Shown here piece after piece: positions 2,283 through 19,522 of a DNA stretch of 64,000 nucleotides. Within the stretch, counting starts at the first letter, position 1. The number at the start of each line of letters is the position of its first letter. The translations under genes and the position numbers were made by a program. The DNA is from Alphaproteobacteria bacterium (GTDB taxonomy: Bacteria; Pseudomonadota; Alphaproteobacteria; UBA828). Below the pieces are notes generated by a model. That model saw nothing but the letters and a program-made list of their open reading frames with translations, did no database searches and was not told where the DNA came from. The stretch covers positions 640,001 through 704,000 of the forward strand of contig CBDCQT010000013.1 in NCBI GenBank assembly GCA_965220745.1, read 5' to 3'.

Positions 2283-3182
2283 CTACGCCGCGCGTAGGAC
2301 GTCCTCAAGCTTGTTCGCGGCCTGCTCGGTATCGGTATTGTCGACCGCTGCGAACTCCCGCGCCAGGCGATCCAGCGCCGCCTCGTACATCTGGCGCTCG
2401 CTGTAGCTCTGGTCCGGCTGGCCGACGTTGCGGTGCAGATCCCGCACGACCTCCGCGATCGAGACCGGATCGCCGGAGTTCAGCTTTGCTTCATACTCCT
2501 GCGCGCGCCGGCTCCACATGACGCGACGCTGGCGTGCTCGCCCCCGCAAGGTGGTGATCGCCGCATCCATGGTCTCTTTCGAGCTCAACCGGCGCATGCC
2601 GGCCGACTCTACCTTGTCGGTCGGGACCATGAGGGTCATCTTGTCCTTTTCGAAGGCCACGACGAACATCTGCAGGGTCTGTTCCGCGACCGCCCGTTCG
2701 TCGATGCCGGTGATCCGACCGACGCCGTGGGCCGGATAGACCACGTGATCGCCCACCGCAAATCCGTTGACCTCTGTCGGGGCCTTCTTCTTGCGCCGCG
2801 CTTCGGCGGCCGCACCTGCCTTAGCCGCGGGGACTGCCTTGTTGGCCCGCTTGGCCCTAGTCCCACCCTTGGCCTTGGTCTCTTTGGCGTCCTTGCCGTT
2901 CTTTGTAGTCTTGGCGGCCTTGGCGCTCTTCGCGCGCCCGGCCGCACCTGCCGGCTTCACCGTGTCCCCCTCCTGTGCCTCCGGCTGTTTCGCCTCCGGC
3001 CGGGCCGCGGGGCGCCGCGCGCCAGACGCAGCGCCGGCGGTCTTCTTGGTCGCAGTCCGAGTGCGCGCCGATGCCTTCGATCGCGCTGCTGTGCTCGGGG
3101 AGGAGGAAGACCGTTTGCGGGCCTTGGCGGTGGTCTGTTCTTTAGTGGAAGTCTTCGATCTCGACGGCGCCTTGCTGCTCAC
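2283..3182 (-). CDS. carD: CarD/CdnL family transcription factor with long Lys/Ala-rich N-terminal extension
   Basis: FAVGDHVVYPAHGVG and MWSRRAQEYEAKLNSGD motifs. Confidence 0.92.
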   Translation of the reverse strand: MSSKAPSRSKTSTKEQTTAKARKRSSSSPSTAARSKASARTRTATKKTAGAASGARRPAARPEAKQPEAQEGDTVKPAGAAGRAKSAKAAKTTKNGKDAKETKAKGGTRAKRANKAVPAAKAGAAAEARRKKKAPTEVNGFAVGDHVVYPAHGVGRITGIDERAVAEQTLQMFVVAFEKDKMTLMVPTDKVESAGMRRLSSKETMDAAITTLRGRARQRRVMWSRRAQEYEAKLNSGDPVSIAEVVRDLHRNVGQPDQSYSERQMYEAALDRLAREFAAVDNTDTEQAANKLEDVLRAA

Positions 3183-3351
3183 TGTATCTCGAATTCCCTG
3201 TCCGATTGAGATAGGGCCGCTCTCGAGCGGCCCTACGCCAGCGGCGTTCGGTCAGCGTTCCGCCGCAGTCGGCCGGGCGCCGATCGCCCCGCCGCGTTGC
3301 ATTGCACAATACCAGAGTCGCGGTGCAATTTCCAGGGTTTGGCCCGCGCGC

Positions 3352-3696
3352 TTAATCCCCTTCGCCCGGCTTATCCGAAAAATACTTCTCGAACTTGCCC
3401 GATTCGTCCTTGTAATCGTCCGCGTCCCCCGGCGGCTCGCCTTTGCGCGTGATATTGGGCCAAATCTCGGCAAACTTTGTGTTGATCTCCAACCACTTCC
3501 CCTCATCGTCGTCGCCGGCGGTATCGGGAATAATGGCCTCGACCGGACACTCCGGCTCGCACACGCCGCAGTCGATGCACTCGTCCGGGTGGATCACCAA
3601 CATGTTCTCACCTTCATAGAAGCAATCCACCGGGCACACCTCGATGCAGTCCATGTACTTGCACCGAATGCAGGACTCGGTCACCAGATACGTCAT
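3352..3696 (-). CDS. fdxA: FdxA-type ferredoxin
   Basis: [18 protein letters not shown] and [12 protein letters not shown] motifs. Confidence 0.95.
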
Positions 3697-3744
3697 TCGC
3701 TTTGTGCTCCGTGCTTCGCTTGTGCGTGCGCCGCAGCCGGCTGA

Positions 3745-4224
3745 TCACGTGGCGGCCGCTCGTTCCGCTCCCTGTCCGACGCGGGCGAGGACACGTTTGC
3801 GCGCTTCCCCTCGTTCCCGGTCCGTGATGTGAAGCAAGCCGCCGATGCGGCGAATCAGATTGGCTTCGTATGCGTGAAGCCGACCATCAGCATAAACCAC
3901 CTCCCACAGCATCTCCATCACCGCGAGACGATCCGCGTGGTCGTAGCGATCGTTTATGGCCCGCGTGAAGCGGTGGAGATCGGTCGCCTCGTGGTGGGCG
4001 GCTTCGGCCTCCTCGATCAGAGTGCCGGCCTCGGCATCGTTAAGCCCGAAATGCGCGCCCAAGGCTGCACAAATCGCGTCGCGCTCGTCGCCGTCGAAGT
4101 GTCCGTCCATACACGCCGCCTCGACCAGCAGCGCCGCCGCCGCGAGCTTCGGCGCTTCGGCTGCCACCGGCTCGTCGCCGGTGGCGCCCGCACCGCTCAG
4201 GAGGATCTTGATCCTGTCAATCAC
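3745..4224 (-). CDS. TerB family tellurite resistance-like protein
   Basis: AAALLVEAACMDG...MLWEVVYADG..HAYEANLIRRI pattern. Confidence 0.85.
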   Translation of the reverse strand: MIDRIKILLSGAGATGDEPVAAEAPKLAAAALLVEAACMDGHFDGDERDAICAALGAHFGLNDAEAGTLIEEAEAAHHEATDLHRFTRAINDRYDHADRLAVMEMLWEVVYADGRLHAYEANLIRRIGGLLHITDRERGEARKRVLARVGQGAERAAAT

Positions 4225-4296
4225 GGGCGCTGCGTATCATAACGGCGGCGACCGACTCAAGGGGTGCCCGGACGCCCCCGCCATATCAGATCTGTC

Positions 4297-4581
4297 CTAC
4301 TCCTGCTCGATTTCCTCGTAAAGTTTCCGCGCTTCGGGCGCAGGCCCGCGCCTTTCCGCCACTGCCAAGATGCGCACGATTTTCACCATTCTGCCTTGCG
4401 CGAAGGTCAGCACGTCGCCGGGACCGACAGTTCGGTGCGCCTTGGTAATGCGGCGGCCGTTGACGCGGATGCGCCCGGTTTCGCAGGCCTTCTGCGCAAG
4501 CCCCCGAGTCTTGAAAAAGCGCGCGTGCCAAAGCCACTTGTCCAGCCGGCTCGCGGCGAGGGCGGGAGCGTCGCGCGTCAC
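4297..4581 (-). CDS. S4 RNA-binding domain protein (Hsp15-like)
   Basis: RLDKWLWHARFFKTR and RRGPAPEARKLYEE motifs. Confidence 0.9.
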   Translation of the reverse strand: MTRDAPALAASRLDKWLWHARFFKTRGLAQKACETGRIRVNGRRITKAHRTVGPGDVLTFAQGRMVKIVRILAVAERRGPAPEARKLYEEIEQE

Positions 4582-7115
4582 GACGGGCGCGCGCCTCCGG
4601 TGGCAAGCTCGCTAAGCTTCGCAAAGGGAGAATCGGGGTCCACTCCCCTCCCCCTGCGGCGCGACTTCTCCGCCGGCCGGTGCGGTCGCGTGCTGCTCCG
4701 CCCATAGCGTGGCAGTCCGTCGGTACCGAGTCCCACCATCGTGTAGCCAAGGGCAGCAAGAACGTCGTCGAACTTCGCCCGCTTGCACGCGGCCAACTTG
4801 AGCATTCCAGAGTCGGTGGCGAATGGCTCCTTGCGTGCCGCCTTGCGCAGCCGCGCGGCGAGGCGCTCCACGATATCCGCGCGGAGCGCCTGGGCGCCCA
4901 GGGGAACCAGACCGAGCGCCGCGTAGCACGCGTCTGGCACGGCCGAGTCGCGGTCCATCGAGACCGCCGAGTCCGGTATGGGCGGCGGCGTGCCGGCACC
5001 GCTCCAGGCCCACCACAGCAGGCCGGCGCAGCGCGAGCGCGCCGGCTTCAGCATGGCGGGCACGAACACGCTGAGCGCGCCAAGCCGAACGCCGGCCTCG
5101 GCGAGGGCGCCCCGCCCCGCCTCATCCAGCGCAGCGATCTGGGGGCCAAGCGAGCGCCGGGGCACGCAGCCGAGCGCCTCGCTCAGTGCAAAGGCGATGC
5201 CGCGGGCCGAGCCGTCCAGCGCCGCCTCACGGAGCGATACCAGGGGCCTCGCGTCGCGCGCGATGCGCCGATCGAGCCACGACTGAAGGCGCCTGCGCAC
5301 GCGTTCCCGCTGCGCCGCGCTCAGATGATCCTCGCCGATCAGTGCAATCTGCGGCCGGAGCGGCGTGTCGCCCTGCCCGAGACGCGCAATTGATGCACCT
5401 TGCCAGGCGATCTCGCCCCAGCGGGGCGCGTCTTCCCGCCCCGCCTCAAGCCCGAGTGTGAACGCACCGTCGCTATCCGCTACCGCGGCCGCGACCCGTC
5501 GCGCCACTTCGCGCTCGACCACGCGGTTGGCGGCCGCGAGAATCTCTCGGCTGCGCTCGGCCTCCGTGTCCGGTCGAAAGCGGAAGCCGTCGAAAGCACC
5601 GGCCCGCTCCCCCTCCACCGTCACCGTGCCGCCTTCGCCGACAAGCGCGAACAGCGCCTCGTCTGCGCGCCTGCCGATACGGGCCATTCGCGCCCTCCGG
5701 TTGACGAAGAGCTCGGTCAGACGCGTATGGAGGGCATCGGAGAGCGCGTCCTCGAGCGAGCGGGTGCGCTGCTGCCAGCCGCGCGCGTCGTCCACCCAGT
5801 CGGCGCGGTGGGACACGTACGTCCAGGTCCGCACATGGCTGATCCGGGCGGTCAGCGTGTCGATGTCGCCCTCGGTGGGCGCCAGCCGCTCGATCGAGCG
5901 GCCGACCCAGTCCGGCGGCAGGCGCCCGCTTCCGACCAGGGAGAGGTAAATCCGCCGCACGAGGCCGACGTGATCCTCCGCCATGGTCTTGCGGAAATCG
6001 GGAATCTGGCAGACCTCCCAGAGGAGCGCGACACGATCCGCACCGGTCAGCGCCTCTGCGATCGCCGAATCGCGGGCCAACACGAGCAACGTGCGATGGT
6101 CGTCCGCATCGTGAGTGCGGCGGAGACCAGGCAGCGGCGGCGGCTTAGCCAGCGATTCCGCCAGTTCAGGCAGCGAGTCGAAGCAAAGCGCCGCGTTGCG
6201 CCAATAGGCCCGGCGCACCGGCGGAAACCGGTGATTTTCGACCGCCTGAACGAAGGAGGGCTCGAAGGGTTCGACACCCCCGGTCGTACCGAAGCTGCCG
6301 TCCCTGAGGTGGCGGCCGGCGCGGCCGGCGATCTGCGCGATCTCGGCTGACGTGAGCATCCGCGTCGTGCGGCCGTCGAACTTCTGATAAGCTGAGAACG
6401 CGACGTGATCCAGGTCTAGGTTGAGCCCCATGCCGATGGCATCGGTCGCGACCAGACTGTCCACCTCGCCTGCCTGGTAGAGCCCCACTTGCGCGTTGCG
6501 CGTGCGCGGGCTCAGTGCCCCAAGCACCACGGCACACCCGCCCCTGAGTCCGCGGATGCGCTCGGCAAGCGCGTAGACCGATTCGGTCGAGAAGGCGATG
6601 ACCGCGTTGCGGGGCGCGAGCCGCGCGAGTTTGCAGTGCCCCTCGTGCGCAAGCGTGGAGAGCCGGGGGCGGCTCGTGAACCGCGCTTCGGGGACGAGTG
6701 TGCGGATCAGCGGGCGCATGGTGTCCGCGCCGAGGAACATGGTCTCCGCCGTGCCGCGTGCGCGAAGGAGCCGGTCGGTGAAGACGTGGCCGCGCTCGCG
6801 GTCGCCCGCCAGTTGAATCTCGTCCACGCCGACAAACTCGACCTGCCTGTCAAGGGGCATCGACTCGACAGTGCAGACGAAGTAGCGGGGCTCCTCCGGG
6901 ATTCGCCGTTCTTCGCCCGTCACCAGGGCGACGGCTTGCTCCCCCTTCTCCTCGACCACCCGATCATAGACTTCGCGGGCGAGGAGGCGGAGCGGGAAGC
7001 CCATCATCCCGGTGCGATGGGCCAGCATGCGCTCGACCGCCAGATGGGTCTTGCCCGTGTTGGTCGGGCCGAGCAGCGCGGTGACAGAAGCGTTCTCGGC
7101 GTCGTGCCGAACCAT
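4578..7115 (-). CDS. Suv3-like SF2 helicase
   Basis: GPTNTGKT Walker A, VDEIQ, ATDAIGMGLN, QIAGRAGR. Confidence 0.9.
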   Translation of the reverse strand: MVRHDAENASVTALLGPTNTGKTHLAVERMLAHRTGMMGFPLRLLAREVYDRVVEEKGEQAVALVTGEERRIPEEPRYFVCTVESMPLDRQVEFVGVDEIQLAGDRERGHVFTDRLLRARGTAETMFLGADTMRPLIRTLVPEARFTSRPRLSTLAHEGHCKLARLAPRNAVIAFSTESVYALAERIRGLRGGCAVVLGALSPRTRNAQVGLYQAGEVDSLVATDAIGMGLNLDLDHVAFSAYQKFDGRTTRMLTSAEIAQIAGRAGRHLRDGSFGTTGGVEPFEPSFVQAVENHRFPPVRRAYWRNAALCFDSLPELAESLAKPPPLPGLRRTHDADDHRTLLVLARDSAIAEALTGADRVALLWEVCQIPDFRKTMAEDHVGLVRRIYLSLVGSGRLPPDWVGRSIERLAPTEGDIDTLTARISHVRTWTYVSHRADWVDDARGWQQRTRSLEDALSDALHTRLTELFVNRRARMARIGRRADEALFALVGEGGTVTVEGERAGAFDGFRFRPDTEAERSREILAAANRVVEREVARRVAAAVADSDGAFTLGLEAGREDAPRWGEIAWQGASIARLGQGDTPLRPQIALIGEDHLSAAQRERVRRRLQSWLDRRIARDARPLVSLREAALDGSARGIAFALSEALGCVPRRSLGPQIAALDEAGRGALAEAGVRLGALSVFVPAMLKPARSRCAGLLWWAWSGAGTPPPIPDSAVSMDRDSAVPDACYAALGLVPLGAQALRADIVERLAARLRKAARKEPFATDSGMLKLAACKRAKFDDVLAALGYTMVGLGTDGLPRYGRSSTRPHRPAEKSRRRGRGVDPDSPFAKLSELATGGARPS

Positions 7116-13577: not shown

Positions 13578-13962
13578 TCTTTCGTCCATCAGATTGTCCT
13601 TCCTGAGTACCGAAAAGGCGTTGGTGTGGCCTACCCCGTTTCATGACTCCTATCTGGGTTGATAATCGCCCCCAATTCGACTCTGGAACGTTCCGGGTAC
13701 GCGTTCAGTCAGGTACATAAAGCACCCAATCTTATGGGTCCGATCTCGATCAACATGGGGCGATTCTGGCAAAGGCAACGTGCGCCGTGCACCGCACCAT
13801 AGTATTGGGGATATATGATACTGACAGACATTGAAGGAGAAATTGTAGGTTTTCAGCTACTTGGTGTATTGTCTTGCAGACTGAAGCACGCTATCGTACG
13901 CACCGTTTGGATTTCTGGTGGTGCCTAGATGGTGCCCGATACGCACCGCAAGGAAAATTCCC

Positions 13963-15117
13963 GTGCCCAAAATCACCAAGAGAACCGTCGATGCCCTCGT
14001 CCCCGAAGAGCGGGAGAGAATCCTCTGGGACGACGCCATCAAAGGCTTCGGGGTCCGTGTCCATCCGACCGGACGCAAGGTCTACATCGTCAAGTACAGA
14101 CACGAGGGGCGATCCGTCAAAGTCACCATTGGACCCCACGGCCCCATCACTCCCGCTGCCGCGCGCGCGAAGGCAGCGGAAATCGTCACCCTCGCGAAGA
14201 CCGGCCGCGATCTCGAAGGGAAGATCCCCCGTGGCAAGAGAGGCGCCACCGTGGCAGACCTCGCCAAGCGCTTCATGGACGAGTACGCGCCTGCCCATCT
14301 GAAGCCCGGCACCGCGCGGCTCTACCGCAAGATCATCGACAACCGCATCCTTCCCCGGCTCGGCAAGCGCCGGGTCGGCGATCTCGGCAAGAACGACGTC
14401 GCCGCTCTTCATCACGAGATGCGCGACGTCCCCGGCCATGCCAACCGGACGCTGAGCGTGCTCTCGCGCATGCTGACCCTCGCCGAGGTCTGGGAGATGC
14501 GGCCCGAGGGCGTCAATCCGTGCCGGCACGTCAAGAAGTATCCGGAGCACAAGCGGGAGCGGTTTCTCTCGGACGACGAGTACCGCCGTCTCGGCGCCGC
14601 GCTGCGTGACGCGGAGGAGGAGGGCTTCGTCTCCCCGGTGGCGATCGCCGCGATACGGTTGTTGATGCTGACCGGGTGCCGGAGCGGGGAGATCATGAGC
14701 CTGCGGTGGGAGCACGTCGATCTTGAGGCAGGCGAGCTCAGGTTGCCGGAGAGCAAGACCGGATCGAAGGTGGTGCACCTGGGCGATCCGGCGATAGCGG
14801 TGCTGCGGGGCATCCCGCGCGCAGACGGCAGTCCGTGGGTGTTGCCAGGCATCAGGGGTGGCAAGCACATCGCGTATCTGCACGACTCGTGGCGCCGCAT
14901 TCTCAAGCGTGCCGCGATCGAGAACCTGCGCATCCACGATCTTCGGCACAGCTTTGCCAGTGGCGGTCTGCTGGTCGGTGAAGGGCTTCCGATGATCGGC
15001 AAGCTTCTCGGCCACAACAGGGTGACGACGACCTCGCGCTATGCGCACCTGGCCAACGACCCCGTGAAGGCGGCCGCCAACCGGATCGCGAGCAGGATCG
15101 CCAAAGTGGCGGGTTGA
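13963..15117 (+). CDS. P4-like tyrosine integrase with N-terminal arm-binding domain
   Basis: WDDAIKGFGVRV arm domain; TGCRSGE, IHDLRH, LLGH, RYAH catalytic motifs; GTG start after AAGGA. Confidence 0.93.
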   Translation: MPKITKRTVDALVPEERERILWDDAIKGFGVRVHPTGRKVYIVKYRHEGRSVKVTIGPHGPITPAAARAKAAEIVTLAKTGRDLEGKIPRGKRGATVADLAKRFMDEYAPAHLKPGTARLYRKIIDNRILPRLGKRRVGDLGKNDVAALHHEMRDVPGHANRTLSVLSRMLTLAEVWEMRPEGVNPCRHVKKYPEHKRERFLSDDEYRRLGAALRDAEEEGFVSPVAIAAIRLLMLTGCRSGEIMSLRWEHVDLEAGELRLPESKTGSKVVHLGDPAIAVLRGIPRADGSPWVLPGIRGGKHIAYLHDSWRRILKRAAIENLRIHDLRHSFASGGLLVGEGLPMIGKLLGHNRVTTTSRYAHLANDPVKAAANRIASRIAKVAG

Positions 15118-15480: not shown

Positions 15481-17074
15481 CAGTCTGTCGGACTTTGGGG
15501 TGGTGTTCGGTTAGAATTCGGCCATGAGCAGATTCGTGGACTGCGGTCGGGACCAAGCTTTCTTGCTTCCGCCCGATCTTCGGGAGTGGATCCCGGAGGA
15601 CGATCTGGCGCACTTCGTGATCGAGGCGGTCGAGCGCGTCGACCTGGGCGCCTTCAAGGTGAACCGCCGCGGCAGCGGCTCGGCGCAGTATCACCCCCGG
15701 ATGATGCTGGCGCTTCTGATCTACTGCTATGCCAACGGGATCTTCTCGAGCCGTCGGATCGAGCGCGCGACCCGTCGCGACATCGGTGTGCGCTTTGTGG
15801 CCGCCAACAGCCATCCCGACCATGACACGATTGCGACCTTCCGGCGCGAGAACCTTGGGGCGGTGGCTGAAAGCTTTCTTCAGGTTCTGCTGTTGGCCAA
15901 GGAGTTGAAGCTGGTGAAGCTGGGGGTGGTCAGCGTCGGCGGCAGCAAGTTCGATGCCAATGCGAGCAAGCATCGCTCGGTCACCTATGACCGGGCGGGG
16001 GCGCTGATCGACCAGTTGCGGCTGGAGATCGCCGATTTGATGGAGCGTGCCGAGGCGGCGGACGCCGACGTCGGCGAGGAGGCGCAGGCGCTGCCCAGGG
16101 AGATTGCGCGCCGTGAGGCTTTGTGCGCGCGCCTGGACGCGGCGCGCCAGCGTCTTGAGGCTCAGGCCAAGGCGCGTGCGGAGGCGGAGCGAGCGGCCTA
16201 CGAGGCCAAGGTAGCAGCGCGCGCCGGGCGCAAGGGCCGGGCCAAGGGCAAGCGGCCGAAGCCGCCCGAGGAGACGCCGCGCGGCGACGAGCAGAGCAAC
16301 CTGAGCGACCCGGACAGCCGGCTGATGCGCAAGAGCAAGAGGCACGAGTACCGCCAAGCCTACAATGCGCAAGCCGTGGTGGATGCCGGGGGCTCTCAGC
16401 TGATCGTGGGCGCGCGGGTCAGCCCCTGCGCCAGCGACCGCAACGAGTTGGTGGCGGACATCGCGGCGATCGCGGCCGAACTGGGCCGGCCCGAGACGGT
16501 GCTGGCGGACAACGGCTATGCCACCGGTGCGGAGGTGGCGGCGCTCGAAGCGGACGGCATCGAGGCTCTGGTGGCGACGGCTGCGGAAGGCCGGCGGCGG
16601 CGCCACGACTTCCGCCCGAGCGGGGCCGGGACGGCGGTGAAGGAAGCCAAGGCCGCCAAGGCCGCGTGGCTCCGGGAGATGGCGAGCAAGCTCGACGGCG
16701 AAGAGGGCCGGGCGCTGTACAGGCTGCGTCAGCAAACCGTCGAGCCGGTGTTCGGCGTCATCAAGGCGGTCCTCGGCTTCACCCGCTTCTCGCTGCGCGG
16801 CCTCGACAAGGTGGCCGGCGAGTGGGACCTGGTGGCGCTGGCCTACAACTGCAAGCGCCTGCACAAGCTCACGTTGTCCATGGCGTCATGACGGCCTTCC
16901 TGGCCCGACTTCTCGATGCGAATGCGTCGACACAGCCCTGCAGTACCGGACATCGACGTTTCAGCGATCGCCCCAACCCCATCCCCGCCGTCTCATCCAA
17001 CCTCGATCGTGCCGCCGGCAAACCAAAGCCAAACCACTCATAATCGAAAGCCGACCCCAAAGTCCGACAGACTG
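15481..17074 (+). mobile_element. IS1182-family insertion sequence
   Basis: Perfect 21-bp terminal IRs CAGTCTGTCGGACTTTGGGGT (15481-15501 and 17054-17074), each flanked by CTAG. Confidence 0.92.
15524..16891 (+). CDS. IS1182 family transposase (first catalytic Asp apparently replaced by Gly)
   Basis: DQAFLLPPDLREWIPEDDLA, YHPRMML, PDHDTIATFRR, LADNGY, RQQTVEPVFG. Confidence 0.9.
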   Translation: MSRFVDCGRDQAFLLPPDLREWIPEDDLAHFVIEAVERVDLGAFKVNRRGSGSAQYHPRMMLALLIYCYANGIFSSRRIERATRRDIGVRFVAANSHPDHDTIATFRRENLGAVAESFLQVLLLAKELKLVKLGVVSVGGSKFDANASKHRSVTYDRAGALIDQLRLEIADLMERAEAADADVGEEAQALPREIARREALCARLDAARQRLEAQAKARAEAERAAYEAKVAARAGRKGRAKGKRPKPPEETPRGDEQSNLSDPDSRLMRKSKRHEYRQAYNAQAVVDAGGSQLIVGARVSPCASDRNELVADIAAIAAELGRPETVLADNGYATGAEVAALEADGIEALVATAAEGRRRRHDFRPSGAGTAVKEAKAAKAAWLREMASKLDGEEGRALYRLRQQTVEPVFGVIKAVLGFTRFSLRGLDKVAGEWDLVALAYNCKRLHKLTLSMAS

Positions 17075-17343
17075 CTAGGTCCTGACACTGATCGACAGGG
17101 GTCTCGGCCCGTCCTCGACCAACTCCACGCTCTTTGCCTTCTGGTGGTTCCTGTACGTCGAATTGACCGCGAAAAACGCGCTGTTCGCTGTCCACGACGA
17201 GGGCGCTCGCTTCTGGGGCCGTGTCGGCTCGCTCATCGAGACGTGCAAGATGAACGGCGACGATGGGGTGGACGCCCCCTCCCGACGGCATCGAATCGTG
17301 CCAAGGTGGTGGTGCGTTGAACCACCTGAGGAAGGAGGCATCC

Positions 17344-18366
17344 ATGGACGAGGTTACCATCATCGGAATCGACTTGGCGAAGAACAGCTTTCAGTTGCAT
17401 GGTGCCCGGGCAGACGGGTCCGTTGCGTTCCGCAAGAAGCTGAGCCGAGGAAAGGTGCTCGACTTCCTCGCCAGGCAATCATGCTGTGTCGTAGCGATGG
17501 AGGCCTGCGCGAGCGCTCACTATTGGGGTCGTGAGGCGCAGGCGCTTGGACACGAGGTCAAGCTGGTCCCGCCGATCTACGTGAAGCCATTCGTGAAGCG
17601 CCAGAAGAACGATACGGCTGACGCGGAGGCGACCACCGAGGCAGCCCAGCGCCCGACCATGAGCTTCGTGGCCGTGAAGACGGAAGAACAGCAGGCCAGG
17701 GGGATGCTGTTCCGCACGCGTGATCTCCTGGTGCGCCAGCGCACGCAGACGATCAATGCTCTGCGAGGTCACTTGGCGGAGTTCGGCGTCATTGCTCCGC
17801 AGGGGCCAGCTCACGTCGGTCGCTTGGAAGCGGCACTCATGGATTCACACTCAGGGCTACCGGAACTGGTTCGCGAACTGGGTGTCCTTCTGCTGGAGCA
17901 GATCGCCGGCCTCGATGAGAAGATCGTCCGATTAGAGAGCGAGCTGCGGGCCAACGCGCGCCGGGACGAAGAAGCGTCGCGACTGATGACGATACCGGGT
18001 GTTGGGCCGATCACCGCGATGGCGGTTCAGGCATTCGCGCCTCCGATGGAGAGCTTCCGGTGCGGGCGCGACTTCTCAGCCTGGATCGGCCTGGTTCCGA
18101 GGCAGCACACAACCGGCGGCAAGCCGCGGCTGGGCAAGATATCCAAGATGGGTCAGCGCGATCTCAGACGGCTCTTGATCGTCGGTGCCATGGCCGAGAT
18201 CTCTTGGGCAGTGCGCCGCGGTACGACGAAGGATCCATGGTTGGCCTGCATGTTGGAACGCAAACCACGCAAGGTAGTCGCCGTTGCGCTGGCCAACCGG
18301 ATGGCCCGCATTATCTGGGCGCTGAACACGAAGAAGGAGATCTACCGGGCTCCCGCCGCCGCCTGA
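17344..18366 (+). CDS. IS110 family DEDD recombinase/transposase
   Basis: AAGGAGG RBS; IGIDLAK, VAMEAC, KNDTADA, IPGVGP, GLVPRQHTTGGK. Confidence 0.95.
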   Translation: MDEVTIIGIDLAKNSFQLHGARADGSVAFRKKLSRGKVLDFLARQSCCVVAMEACASAHYWGREAQALGHEVKLVPPIYVKPFVKRQKNDTADAEATTEAAQRPTMSFVAVKTEEQQARGMLFRTRDLLVRQRTQTINALRGHLAEFGVIAPQGPAHVGRLEAALMDSHSGLPELVRELGVLLLEQIAGLDEKIVRLESELRANARRDEEASRLMTIPGVGPITAMAVQAFAPPMESFRCGRDFSAWIGLVPRQHTTGGKPRLGKISKMGQRDLRRLLIVGAMAEISWAVRRGTTKDPWLACMLERKPRKVVAVALANRMARIIWALNTKKEIYRAPAAA

Positions 18367-18610
18367 CAAGGGTGAAGGTTGGGAAGCCGTCGGGGATGTG
18401 AGCAGGTCGGAGGATCGGTAAGGGCAAACGGTCAATGAGACGGGGTCGGGAAAACCAGTGTAGGGCTCCGAGCTTTCAAGCTCGTCGCGTCGATTTTGGA
18501 CCCGATCCGCGCATCTCCATACAGGCCAGCGGCGTCTAGCAGGCCGCATCAACAGGCCGGATAGACGACTGCACCTGACCACATGAACCGAGCCGTCCAA
18601 AGAAAGCGCT
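18367..18610 (+). ncRNA. Putative bridge RNA / seekRNA region (boundaries approximate)
   Basis: Guide-like matches to the insertion target (GTAGGGCTC 18460-18468; GCGTCGA 18487-18493) flanking hairpin CGAGCTT-TC-AAGCTCG; match to the element right end (ATAGACGA 18561-18568). Confidence 0.8.
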
Positions 18611-18778
18611 TGCATCACCGGGGGCGTCCATAGACGAGCCCTACGCTTGGCTCAAGAGCACGCTGGAGAAAATCGCGGCCGGCCCCATCCTCAATCCCGA
18701 ATTCACGAACTCCTGCCCTGGAACTTCGGTCCGGCGTCAAGCTGAAAACCAAGGTGGTGCGCTTGCACCGGTCTCACG

Positions 18779-19522
18779 TCAGAGTCTGCTGAAGGCCCAG
18801 ATCACCGTGCCCACGATGTGGGCCTCGTCGACGAGGCAGGTATAGGGCTCGTAGGCAGGATTGGCGGAGTGCAGACGGATCGCGGGAGGCTCAGTGTGGA
18901 TCAGCATCTCGACCCGCTTGACCACGAGGCCGCCGCCGTCCCAGAGCACGACCATCTCACCAGTCACCGGCACGCGGCGAGAGGTGTCGACCACGATCCT
19001 GTCGCCCTCGCCGACGAGGGGCTCCATGGAATCGCCGCGGGCGCCGAGGATGCGCAGGTTCTCGGGCGCGGTGCGTCCCTCGTGGCGGATCATGGCGTCG
19101 GGCAGGTACCAGCGCGCCGCCTCAGCAGCGTTGTCCTCATTGAGAGCCCCGGGACCGGCAGAGGCGTCCACAGCCATTTCGCGGACCGCGGATACCGGCG
19201 CGTTCGGAAGCTGCGGTGGCCTGAAGCGCGGGGTTCGCGGCTTCGCTGGCCTGCGCTTCGGCACGTAATCGTGACGCAACTCCTCCGGGTCGCACCCGAG
19301 CCATTCGGCGAGCGCGCTGCGGTCGCGCGACCTGAGCGCCTTGGGGACGCCGCGTTCGAGGAACTGGTGCATGTACGAGGAGCCGCGGCCGATGGCGAGG
19401 GAGGCCTCCCGCATTGTGGCGTCCCGCTCGCGCAGCAGGTGGCGGATTCTCTTTCTGATGGGGTCGTTCTGCAGCAGACGTGCCTTGTCGTCATCTGCCC
19501 GGTTCCGGGGTTGATCGTGCAT
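18779..19522 (-). CDS. cI/LexA-like repressor (HTH plus S24 peptidase)
   Basis: N-terminal HTH (MREASLAIGRGSSYMHQFLERG); RGDSMEP catalytic Ser; VVKRV catalytic Lys. Confidence 0.88.
   Translation of the reverse strand: MHDQPRNRADDDKARLLQNDPIRKRIRHLLRERDATMREASLAIGRGSSYMHQFLERGVPKALRSRDRSALAEWLGCDPEELRHDYVPKRRPAKPRTPRFRPPQLPNAPVSAVREMAVDASAGPGALNEDNAAEAARWYLPDAMIRHEGRTAPENLRILGARGDSMEPLVGEGDRIVVDTSRRVPVTGEMVVLWDGGGLVVKRVEMLIHTEPPAIRLHSANPAYEPYTCLVDEAHIVGTVIWAFSRL

Follow-up and report, generated by a model that had tools for sequence, protein, structure and literature searches.

An IS1111-Group Insertion Sequence Whose Candidate RNA Guides Match the IS66 tnpC Lineage That It Interrupts

Anatomy of the Element and Its Insertion Site

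The window analyzed here is a stretch of 64,000 nucleotides from the genome of an Alphaproteobacteria bacterium of the UBA828 lineage (GenBank assembly GCA_965220745.1, contig CBDCQT010000013.1, positions 640,001 to 704,000 of the forward strand), in which an insertion sequence (IS) interrupts what is left of an IS66 tnpC gene; all positions given below are those of the window, and the features are collected in Table 1. Judged by its domains, ends and general anatomy, the IS at 17263-18636 belongs to the IS1111 group of the IS110 family and is intact, and the original prediction of an IS1111-type element is borne out by the Pfam matches of its open reading frame to DEDD_Tnp_IS110 (PF01548, E 4.2e-14) and Transposase_20 (PF02371, E 2.8e-21). 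The C-terminal part of the encoded recombinase contains GLVPRQHTTG, which has the form of the GL-P----S(t)G motif as defined in PMC11187229. A scan of genome contigs gave 197 relatives, 80 of which were used for the comparisons that follow; their recombinases are full-length, with 70-90% amino acid identity.

The two subterminal inverted repeats (sTIRs) are perfect reverse complements over 11 bp, the expectation for IS1111 being about 11-13 bp, and outside them lie terminal extensions of 6 (ATGGGG) and 4 (TAGA) nucleotides which, with the shared CG, add up to 12, a sum that depends on where sTIR and core are drawn; the extensions given for IS1111 elements in PMC11187229 are 7 + 3 or 6 + 3 bp. 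The recombinase gene is preceded by a 5' leader of 81 nucleotides and followed by a non-coding region (NCR) of 270 nucleotides, from the end of the stop codon at 18366 to the end of the element at 18636. The element is present as a single copy in its own genome.

The flanks are, by the peptide that they encode, the two halves of a decayed IS66 tnpC C-terminal domain, separated within the codons NG[D]EPY. Each piece matches a short part of DDE_Tnp_IS66_C (PF13817), the left one over positions 1-10 of the profile with E 0.013, the right one over 13-26 with E 0.012, both below the curated cut-off; the joined peptide, SLIETCKMNG-D-EPYAWLKSTLEKIA, is one residue off the IS66 copies of sister genomes, which lie in open frames of 472-569 aa and score up to 77.6 bits. 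No DDE domain of IS66 TnpC was found upstream in the window, where only the C-terminal remnant is left.

Table 1. Features of the IS1111-group element and of the interrupted IS66 tnpC remnant. G006 is the genome carrying the only orthologous locus.
Feature	Position	Strand	Remarks
IS1111-group insertion sequence	17263..18636	+	1374 bp including one CG core copy; ends aligned to 80 related loci
Transposase/recombinase gene	17344..18366	+	340 aa; Pfam DEDD_Tnp_IS110 + Transposase_20
Left CG core copy (crossover dinucleotide)	17261..17262	+	right copy at 18635-18636
Left sTIR TGGACGCCCCC	17269..17279	+	11 bp; preceded by 6-nt extension ATGGGG
Right sTIR GGGGGCGTCCA	18620..18630	+	followed by 4-nt extension TAGA + core; conserved in the alignment of relatives
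Predicted seekRNA/bridge RNA core	18418..18579	+	RNAalifold consensus, 37 sequences
T guide (candidate) GTAGGGCTC	18460..18468	+	9/9 complementary to top strand, core-G + right flank AGCCCTAC
Hairpin CGAGC-TTTCAA-GCTCG within target-binding loop	18469..18484	+	consensus structure, window fold
B guide (candidate) GCGT-CG-AT	18487..18494	+	reads like the left flank, the core and two initial element bases, same sense
Left-end donor guide candidate CTCCAT	18515..18520	+	reverse complement of ATGGAG; against ATGGGG, CCAT plus one further base only
Right-end donor guide (candidate) ATAGA-CG-A	18561..18568	+	last 5 nt of the element + core + first base of left end
IS66 tnpC remnant, left part	17158..17262	+	ending ...SLIETCKMNGD; 93% identical to G006 ortholog
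IS66 tnpC remnant, right part EPYAWLKSTLEKIAAG...	18637..18745	+	Pfam; frameshifted further on; comparison with G006

The position of the crossover is ambiguous from the window alone, because GACGA is repeated at both junctions and the boundary of the element can slide inside it. The relatives were informative in this respect: among the 68 copies with both ends recognized (from 81 sequences including the window), 61 have an identical dinucleotide at both ends, CG in 51 and TG in 10, and the base that follows the right-hand CG/TG is variable. Since CG/TG is common to both ends and the next base on the right is not constant, the core is taken to be CG and the element to extend from 17263, where it starts with ATGGGG, to 18636, where it ends with TAGA-CG. 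GA as the core, as originally proposed, is ruled out by the same comparison and was one base off. The empty site reconstructed in the original prediction is unaffected by this correction, the joined flanks reading AACGGCGACGAGCCCTAC (N G D E P Y), and insertion with no target duplication beyond the shared core fits both the relatives (61/68) and a contig from another study that skips exactly 1374 bp (see below).

Target Guides and Their Covariation With the Insertion Sites

Two short segments of the NCR, here called T and B and separated by a hairpin, match the right and the left flank of the element, respectively. The B guide agrees with the left junction of the window, GCGA-CG-AT, at 7/8 positions, and with the intact IS66 copies of sister genomes at 6/6 over flank and core. 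Jointly, the two guides would specify a site of 14 bases, GCGT-CG-AGCCCTAC, arranged as 4 + 2 + 8, so that the 7 + 2 + 5 layout given in the original prediction is not borne out; the window site, GCGA-CG-AGCCCTAC, is matched at 13 of the 14 bases, and its mismatch (A versus T in the guide) adjoins the core. The T match stands 5' of the B match, and the same order is described for the seekRNAs of IS1111 elements in PMC11187229.

The strings on which that prediction was built are present at the positions given, namely GTAGGGCTC at 18460-18468, GCGTCGA at 18487-18493, CATCTCCAT at 18512-18520 and ATAGACGA at 18561-18568, and the assignment of the two target guides and of the right donor guide is confirmed by the covariation seen in relatives. 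The hairpin of 7 bp that was placed between the target strings stands in part: the palindrome at 18469-18484 is there and allows five realistic pairs, seven being reached only with the loop shrunk to 2 nucleotides.

When the last 300 nucleotides of 47 distinct relatives were aligned, a strongly conserved scaffold was obtained that is interrupted by variable blocks at the guide positions, in the order GGGAAAACCAG, a T block of about 9 nucleotides, the hairpin, a B block ending in core + AT, and TTGGACCC. In 29 distinct target loops the guides match the flanks of their own element at 6.90/8 (T) and 7.07/8 (B) positions on average, compared with 3.91/8 and 3.89/8 in 804 mismatched element/site pairs used as control; a match of at least 7/8 to the own flank is found for T in 22/29 and for B in 25/29, as opposed to 0.6% and 0.7% of the mismatched pairs. 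The guide scores of the window element were counted by hand, and the other loops were parsed automatically. The covariation with their own flanks in 29 related variants supports the role of these segments as seekRNA/bridge-RNA guides.

Donor Guides and Predicted RNA Structure

Further downstream in the NCR, GG-ATAGA-CG-A-C at 18559-18569 contains a repeat of the circle junction, made up of the right end, the core and the initial base of the left end; for this element the junction is predicted to read ...CCATAGA-CG-ATGGGGTGG... The right end (A + 4-nt extension + core) occurs verbatim in the donor segment of the RNA in 25/30 distinct relatives. For the left end, the contiguous match in relatives covers 4 nucleotides in 20/30, 5 in 3/30 and 6 in 7/30, which agrees with the earlier description of the left donor candidate as a partial match only (CCAT plus 0-2 nucleotides in relatives).

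In the RNAalifold consensus, the target loop and the donor multi-loop both lie inside an outer stem predicted between 18418-18425 and 18571-18579; the target loop is surrounded by a stem with CCAG/UUGG as its closing pairs, and an arm formed by GGCC/GGCC and GCGGC/GCCGC lies between the two donor segments. The consensus structure has 95.7% of cells paired, versus 27-41% with slid partners, compensatory change is seen at 8 pairs, and the covariation score was reached by 0/500 shuffles; pair 101:116 of the hairpin, for example, is GC in 17, AU in 8 and UA in 5 sequences. The sequence of the window alone folds at z = -2.4. The donor nucleotides of the window element are predicted to lie in a multi-loop, and they do so in many IS1111 orthologues according to Durrant et al. 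(PMC11208160).

These results bear on whether the matches between NCR and flanks could be coincidental, the target being chosen by protein-DNA recognition alone. This reading may draw on the fact that Rfam gave no matching family at E <= 1 within 16500-19500; it is contradicted by the covariation of guide and flank in 29 variants, with controls below 1%, as well as by the structural covariation of the RNA and by the experiments on family members published in PMC11187229, and we regard it as hardly credible.

Distribution of the Guide-Specified Target

In the 21 genomes of the genus, the 14-mer specified by the guides was found 43 times, spread over 6 genomes, with 37 of these occurrences in one genome (G011); its reversed control was found 6 times. 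All occurrences except one (42/43) lie in IS66 tnpC; 29 of the 30 loci that were fetched read CKMNGVEPYAW, and the remaining 13 sites were assigned to IS66 through their overlap with PF13817 matches, the coordinates being compared by eye. IS66_C domains are present in 19/21 of the genus genomes. The IS66 lineage with the peptide of the remnant (loci L267, L269, L271 and L285) reads GGCGTCGAGCCCTACG, a 14/14 match to both guides, and at the position where the window has A these intact copies agree with the T of the guide. The original prediction derived an ideal target from the RNA, GCGTCGAGCCCTAC (G-V-E-P-Y), and this is the sequence of the intact copies that sister genomes carry of the same IS66 lineage. 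The genome of the element itself has no further site of this kind, which fits its single copy there.

The search was extended to 401 genomes of the class with the 15-mer GGCGTCGAGCCCTAC, which gave 10 matches in 9 genomes (reversed control, 7), none of them in IS66. The target is therefore specific to one IS66 lineage, and the 15-mer as a general IS66 signature is ruled out by 0/10. IS66 as the programmed target is supported by the distribution of the target and not by repeated insertions.

As a side observation, the best IS66 copy of the element's own genome (L120, G000:C10:158000-166000) has its tnpC split by an insert of about 2.4 kb (about 3182-5630) near the conserved IRP...KKNALFAG; the 694-aa open reading frame of this insert looks like a large serine recombinase, by eye only.

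Independent Samples and RNA-Library Contigs

Contigs of public sequencing runs were aligned to 17000-18900; the runs X1-X4 share one sample, which may be the source of the genome. A contig of X6, which belongs to another study, joins 17260 to 18635 and skips exactly 1374 bp, which corresponds to an empty site in its A variant, with a shorter side of 26 nucleotides that falls under the 30-nt caution; on this empty-site allele, the insertion would be polymorphic. Other contigs of X5 and X6 join 17257 to 18635 with TGT between them, giving an uninterrupted GGTGTCGAGCCC, and uninterrupted GGCGT/CGAGCCC forms are also present in both runs. A loose end in X5, ...AATGGCGT before 18635, equals the perfect target. 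Moreover, a 180-nt contig of X6 covers 18345-18524, including the guide region, with 1 difference and with its flanks unseen, so that the same guide region is present in a second study. X6 further contains a left end that is nearly identical (3 differences in 388 nucleotides) and runs into a different left flank.

In an RNA library (X7), contigs cover 17337-17510 (1 difference) and 18028-18214 (2 differences) of the recombinase gene and 18506-18572 of the NCR (0 differences). Another X7 contig, over 18297-18535, has the conserved scaffold but another sequence at the guide positions (18459-18469 and 18482-18490), besides a change in the hairpin loop (18475) and three more at 18415-18417; the RNA-library contigs therefore include a relative whose target is a different one. 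An RNA contig at 18543-18664 crosses the right junction by 28 nucleotides, below the 31-nt rule, and was not used as evidence. Some joints in X1, among them 17203>18636 and 17263>18704, as well as a number of short skips, stem from contigs of repeats and were set aside as not interpretable, and stretches lacking contig cover were likewise given no weight.

Proposed Mechanism and Alternative Explanations

Taken as a whole, the data make it probable that this IS1111-group element is an RNA-guided recombinase system for which the IS66 tnpC lineage is the habitual, programmed target. The DEDD recombinase would be guided by a seekRNA/bridge RNA that is made from the 3' NCR and bound by the protein. 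In one loop of this RNA, GTAGGGCTC would pair with the top strand and GCGT-CG-AT with the bottom strand of the target, and a second, multi-loop region would carry the circle junction of the element (ATAGA-CG-A, the left end being represented by CCAT). By recombining across the CG core, the element would then be placed in the N-G-V/D-E-P-Y codons of the C-terminal domain of IS66 tnpC. As a habitual target, the IS66 lineage would offer a multi-copy, horizontally mobile site the loss of which is costless to the host, and an active element may have used it repeatedly.

Several observations weigh against this interpretation. This guide variant is known from a single insertion: a second copy with the same guides was found neither in the own genome of the element, nor in the 80 related loci (of 197), nor in the 401 genomes of the class, nor among 100 relatives, where the best NCR is 86% identical and has other guides. 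In metagenomes, the 80 shown of the 104 stretches that matched the T-guide word are all devoid of the IS scaffold and represent chance matches; among plasmids, 704 records matched, nearly all with 60-80% identity, and did not include the same element, and viral contigs gave 0 matches. The 37 IS66 copies with a perfect target in G011 are all unoccupied, and in the whole class the exact 15-mer is found outside IS66 in every case. The sister copies are homologs of the window flanks, so that their perfect match adds one independent base (T versus A). As to the RNA, the B guide is short (4 nucleotides + core), and a manual count by the 8-nt metric of the relatives gives it 5/8 at the window site, less than the 7.07 averaged by the family; the left donor guide is a poor fit; neither promoter-like nor terminator-like sites were found in a scan of 17150-18750; and the lack of an Rfam match was mentioned above. 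Finally, the metatranscriptome contigs of X7 could stem from close relatives or from DNA, and by their nature say nothing on transcript ends, strand or circle. The proposal that the IS parasitises IS66 thus has the target distribution in the genus (42/43) in its favor, and one insertion behind it. The right-junction pattern, looked for in 101 relatives, gave 3 matches besides the window, all inside an unrelated conserved gene. Genome G011 does carry other IS1111 family members, with different guides.

Having one insertion only, with the mismatch of the site next to the core and a short effective left guide, is also compatible with a normal IS1111-type IS that has some other sequence, sharing most of the 14-mer, as its habitual target and for which the IS66 site was an off-target or "half-match" landing. 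Half-match insertion is reported for IS621 in a preprint (bioRxiv 10.64898/2026.08.31.748434), and the location of all 10 class-wide 15-mers outside IS66 and the different left flank next to the near-identical left end in X6 point in the same direction. We nevertheless consider such a landing rather unlikely, given that 13 of the 14 specified bases are matched at the window site and 14 of 14 in intact IS66 copies, that nearly all perfect sites of the genus are in IS66, and that the own genome holds no better site.

The state of the locus raises a different question, namely whether the element is a fossil without activity, fixed in an IS graveyard that is decaying, where the match of guide and target records one old event and has no present function. 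The single copy would fit this, as would a host IS66 that is truncated, frameshifted and abutted upstream by the transposase gene at 15524-16891, and a genome in which no usable target is left. Features that speak against it are the full-length reading frame and the perfect sTIRs, the near-identical pieces in two other metagenome samples, the pieces of the recombinase gene in the RNA library (17337-17510, 18028-18214) and the empty-site allele of X6, on account of which we hold the fossil explanation to be quite improbable.

The Orthologous Locus and the Genomic Surroundings

The only orthologous locus (L300; G006:C73, about 2895-3100, minus strand) is 96-98% identical to the window on the right and 93% on the left, and is without the IS. 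It lacks 5 bp exactly at the crossover, reading AACGGCG-CCCTAC where the intact IS66 copies read AACGGCGTCGAGCCCTAC; the deletion is considered derived because the intact copies keep those bases, and it may have been left as a scar by the recombinase or have arisen by chance. A G006-like sequence was rejected as the ancestral target, as insertion at its CG cannot yield the flanks of the window and intact IS66 keeps the 5 bases.

The IS66 remnant starts near 17158, about 270 bp downstream of the gene at 15524-16891, which encodes a DDE_Tnp_1/DUF772 transposase. The surroundings look like a mobile island, with a tyrosine integrase gene at 13918-15117 (Phage_integrase with an arm-binding domain) and, near the remnant, a gene for an S24 (LexA/CI-like) peptidase at 18779-19522 on the minus strand.

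Relatives Inserted in Other Mobile Elements

The flanks of nine guide groups of relatives were scanned with Pfam, and three of these groups were found in genes of mobile elements. The first (L008, L011, L017 and L018) comprises four copies in one metagenome-assembled genome, with the insertion near 2917/4300 in an HTH_Tnp_1 (IS3-type orfA) gene, and the other two (L030/L031 and L070) are inserted in two tyrosine-integrase genes (Phage_integrase). The members of these three groups have 75-82% amino acid identity to the window element, and their guides match the sites in which they lie. The flank pieces of L003, L055, L020, L066, L039 and L033 gave no Pfam family, and their long open frames may be noise due to high GC content.

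Elements of this clade are also found inside one another. Locus L038:1-4330 is a triple nest, in which one element lies in the left end of another and a third in the seekRNA region of the second, at AAGAGGC-CG-ACATACGACAG; in L230 (minus strand, junctions at about 1756 and about 3137) an element lies inside the right inverted repeat of a sibling, at GGGGG-CG-TCCATAGACG. In both loci, the guides of the guest elements match the insertion sites. These cases suggest that targeting of one element by another is common in the clade. A tentative extension, which we find possible at best, is that the clade forms a guild of hyperparasites, whose seekRNAs would have been repeatedly retargeted to conserved stretches of other mobile elements (IS66 tnpC, IS3 orfA, tyrosine integrase genes, and also the seekRNA gene and the ends of sibling IS1111 elements), the deletion in G006 being a recombinase scar that removed the target.

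Significance and Comparison With Known Systems

The element would represent a clean natural example of seekRNA/bridge RNA programming in the IS1111 group, and leaves the known mechanism unchanged. The 29 natural guide variants on one scaffold come close to a natural reprogramming table, with variable positions, guide lengths and CG/TG cores, and could inform engineering. In addition, IS66 tnpC would be a further case among the few sequences of mobile elements that serve the IS110 family as safe landing sites present in multiple copies. In the literature searched, paper supplements lying outside the search, no report of an IS110/IS1111 element in IS66 tnpC was found. The novelty of IS-on-IS targeting implied by the original prediction is lessened by ISEc21, for which both the mechanism and the targeting of codons of IS3-family transposase genes are described in PMC11187229.

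According to this source, ISEc21 also belongs to the IS110 family, and a conserved coding motif in the transposase gene of another IS family is matched on both strands by its seekRNA; its insertion is likewise orientation-specific and without duplication. The two differ in that the NCR of ISEc21 is upstream, with the B match 5' of T, whereas the window element has a downstream NCR with T 5' of B; in that the target of ISEc21 consists of the IS3 DDE codons, and that of the window element is in the C-terminal domain of IS66 TnpC; and in that ISEc21 has many copies and was tested experimentally, whereas the element described here is a single copy known from its sequence alone. With the IS1111 elements ISEc11, ISPa11, ISKpn4 and ISPst6, as presented in PMC11187229, the window element shares the sTIRs, the 3' NCR, a DEDD transposase of 330-350 aa, the GL-P----S(t)G motif, and a seekRNA in which the top-strand match comes first in the 5' to 3' direction and overlaps with the bottom-strand match at the crossover. 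By contrast, the targets of these four elements are a linear site, repetitive extragenic palindromic (REP) sequences or the integron attC, and not a transposase gene, and their extensions are 7 + 3 or 6 + 3 bp, compared with 6 and 4 nucleotides plus a 2-nt core here.

IS1111 members that target the ends of Tn21 and integron attC sites are cited in that text too; those directed to the Tn21 ends also aim at another mobile element, but at a non-coding terminal repeat and not at transposase codons. Finally, the window element shares with the IS621 bridge RNA, as described in PMC11208160, a guide in two parts by which target and donor are recognized around a core of 2 nucleotides; in IS621 the RNA is located in the left end and has two simple internal loops, whereas in the window element it is predicted in the right end, with the donor segments in a multi-loop.

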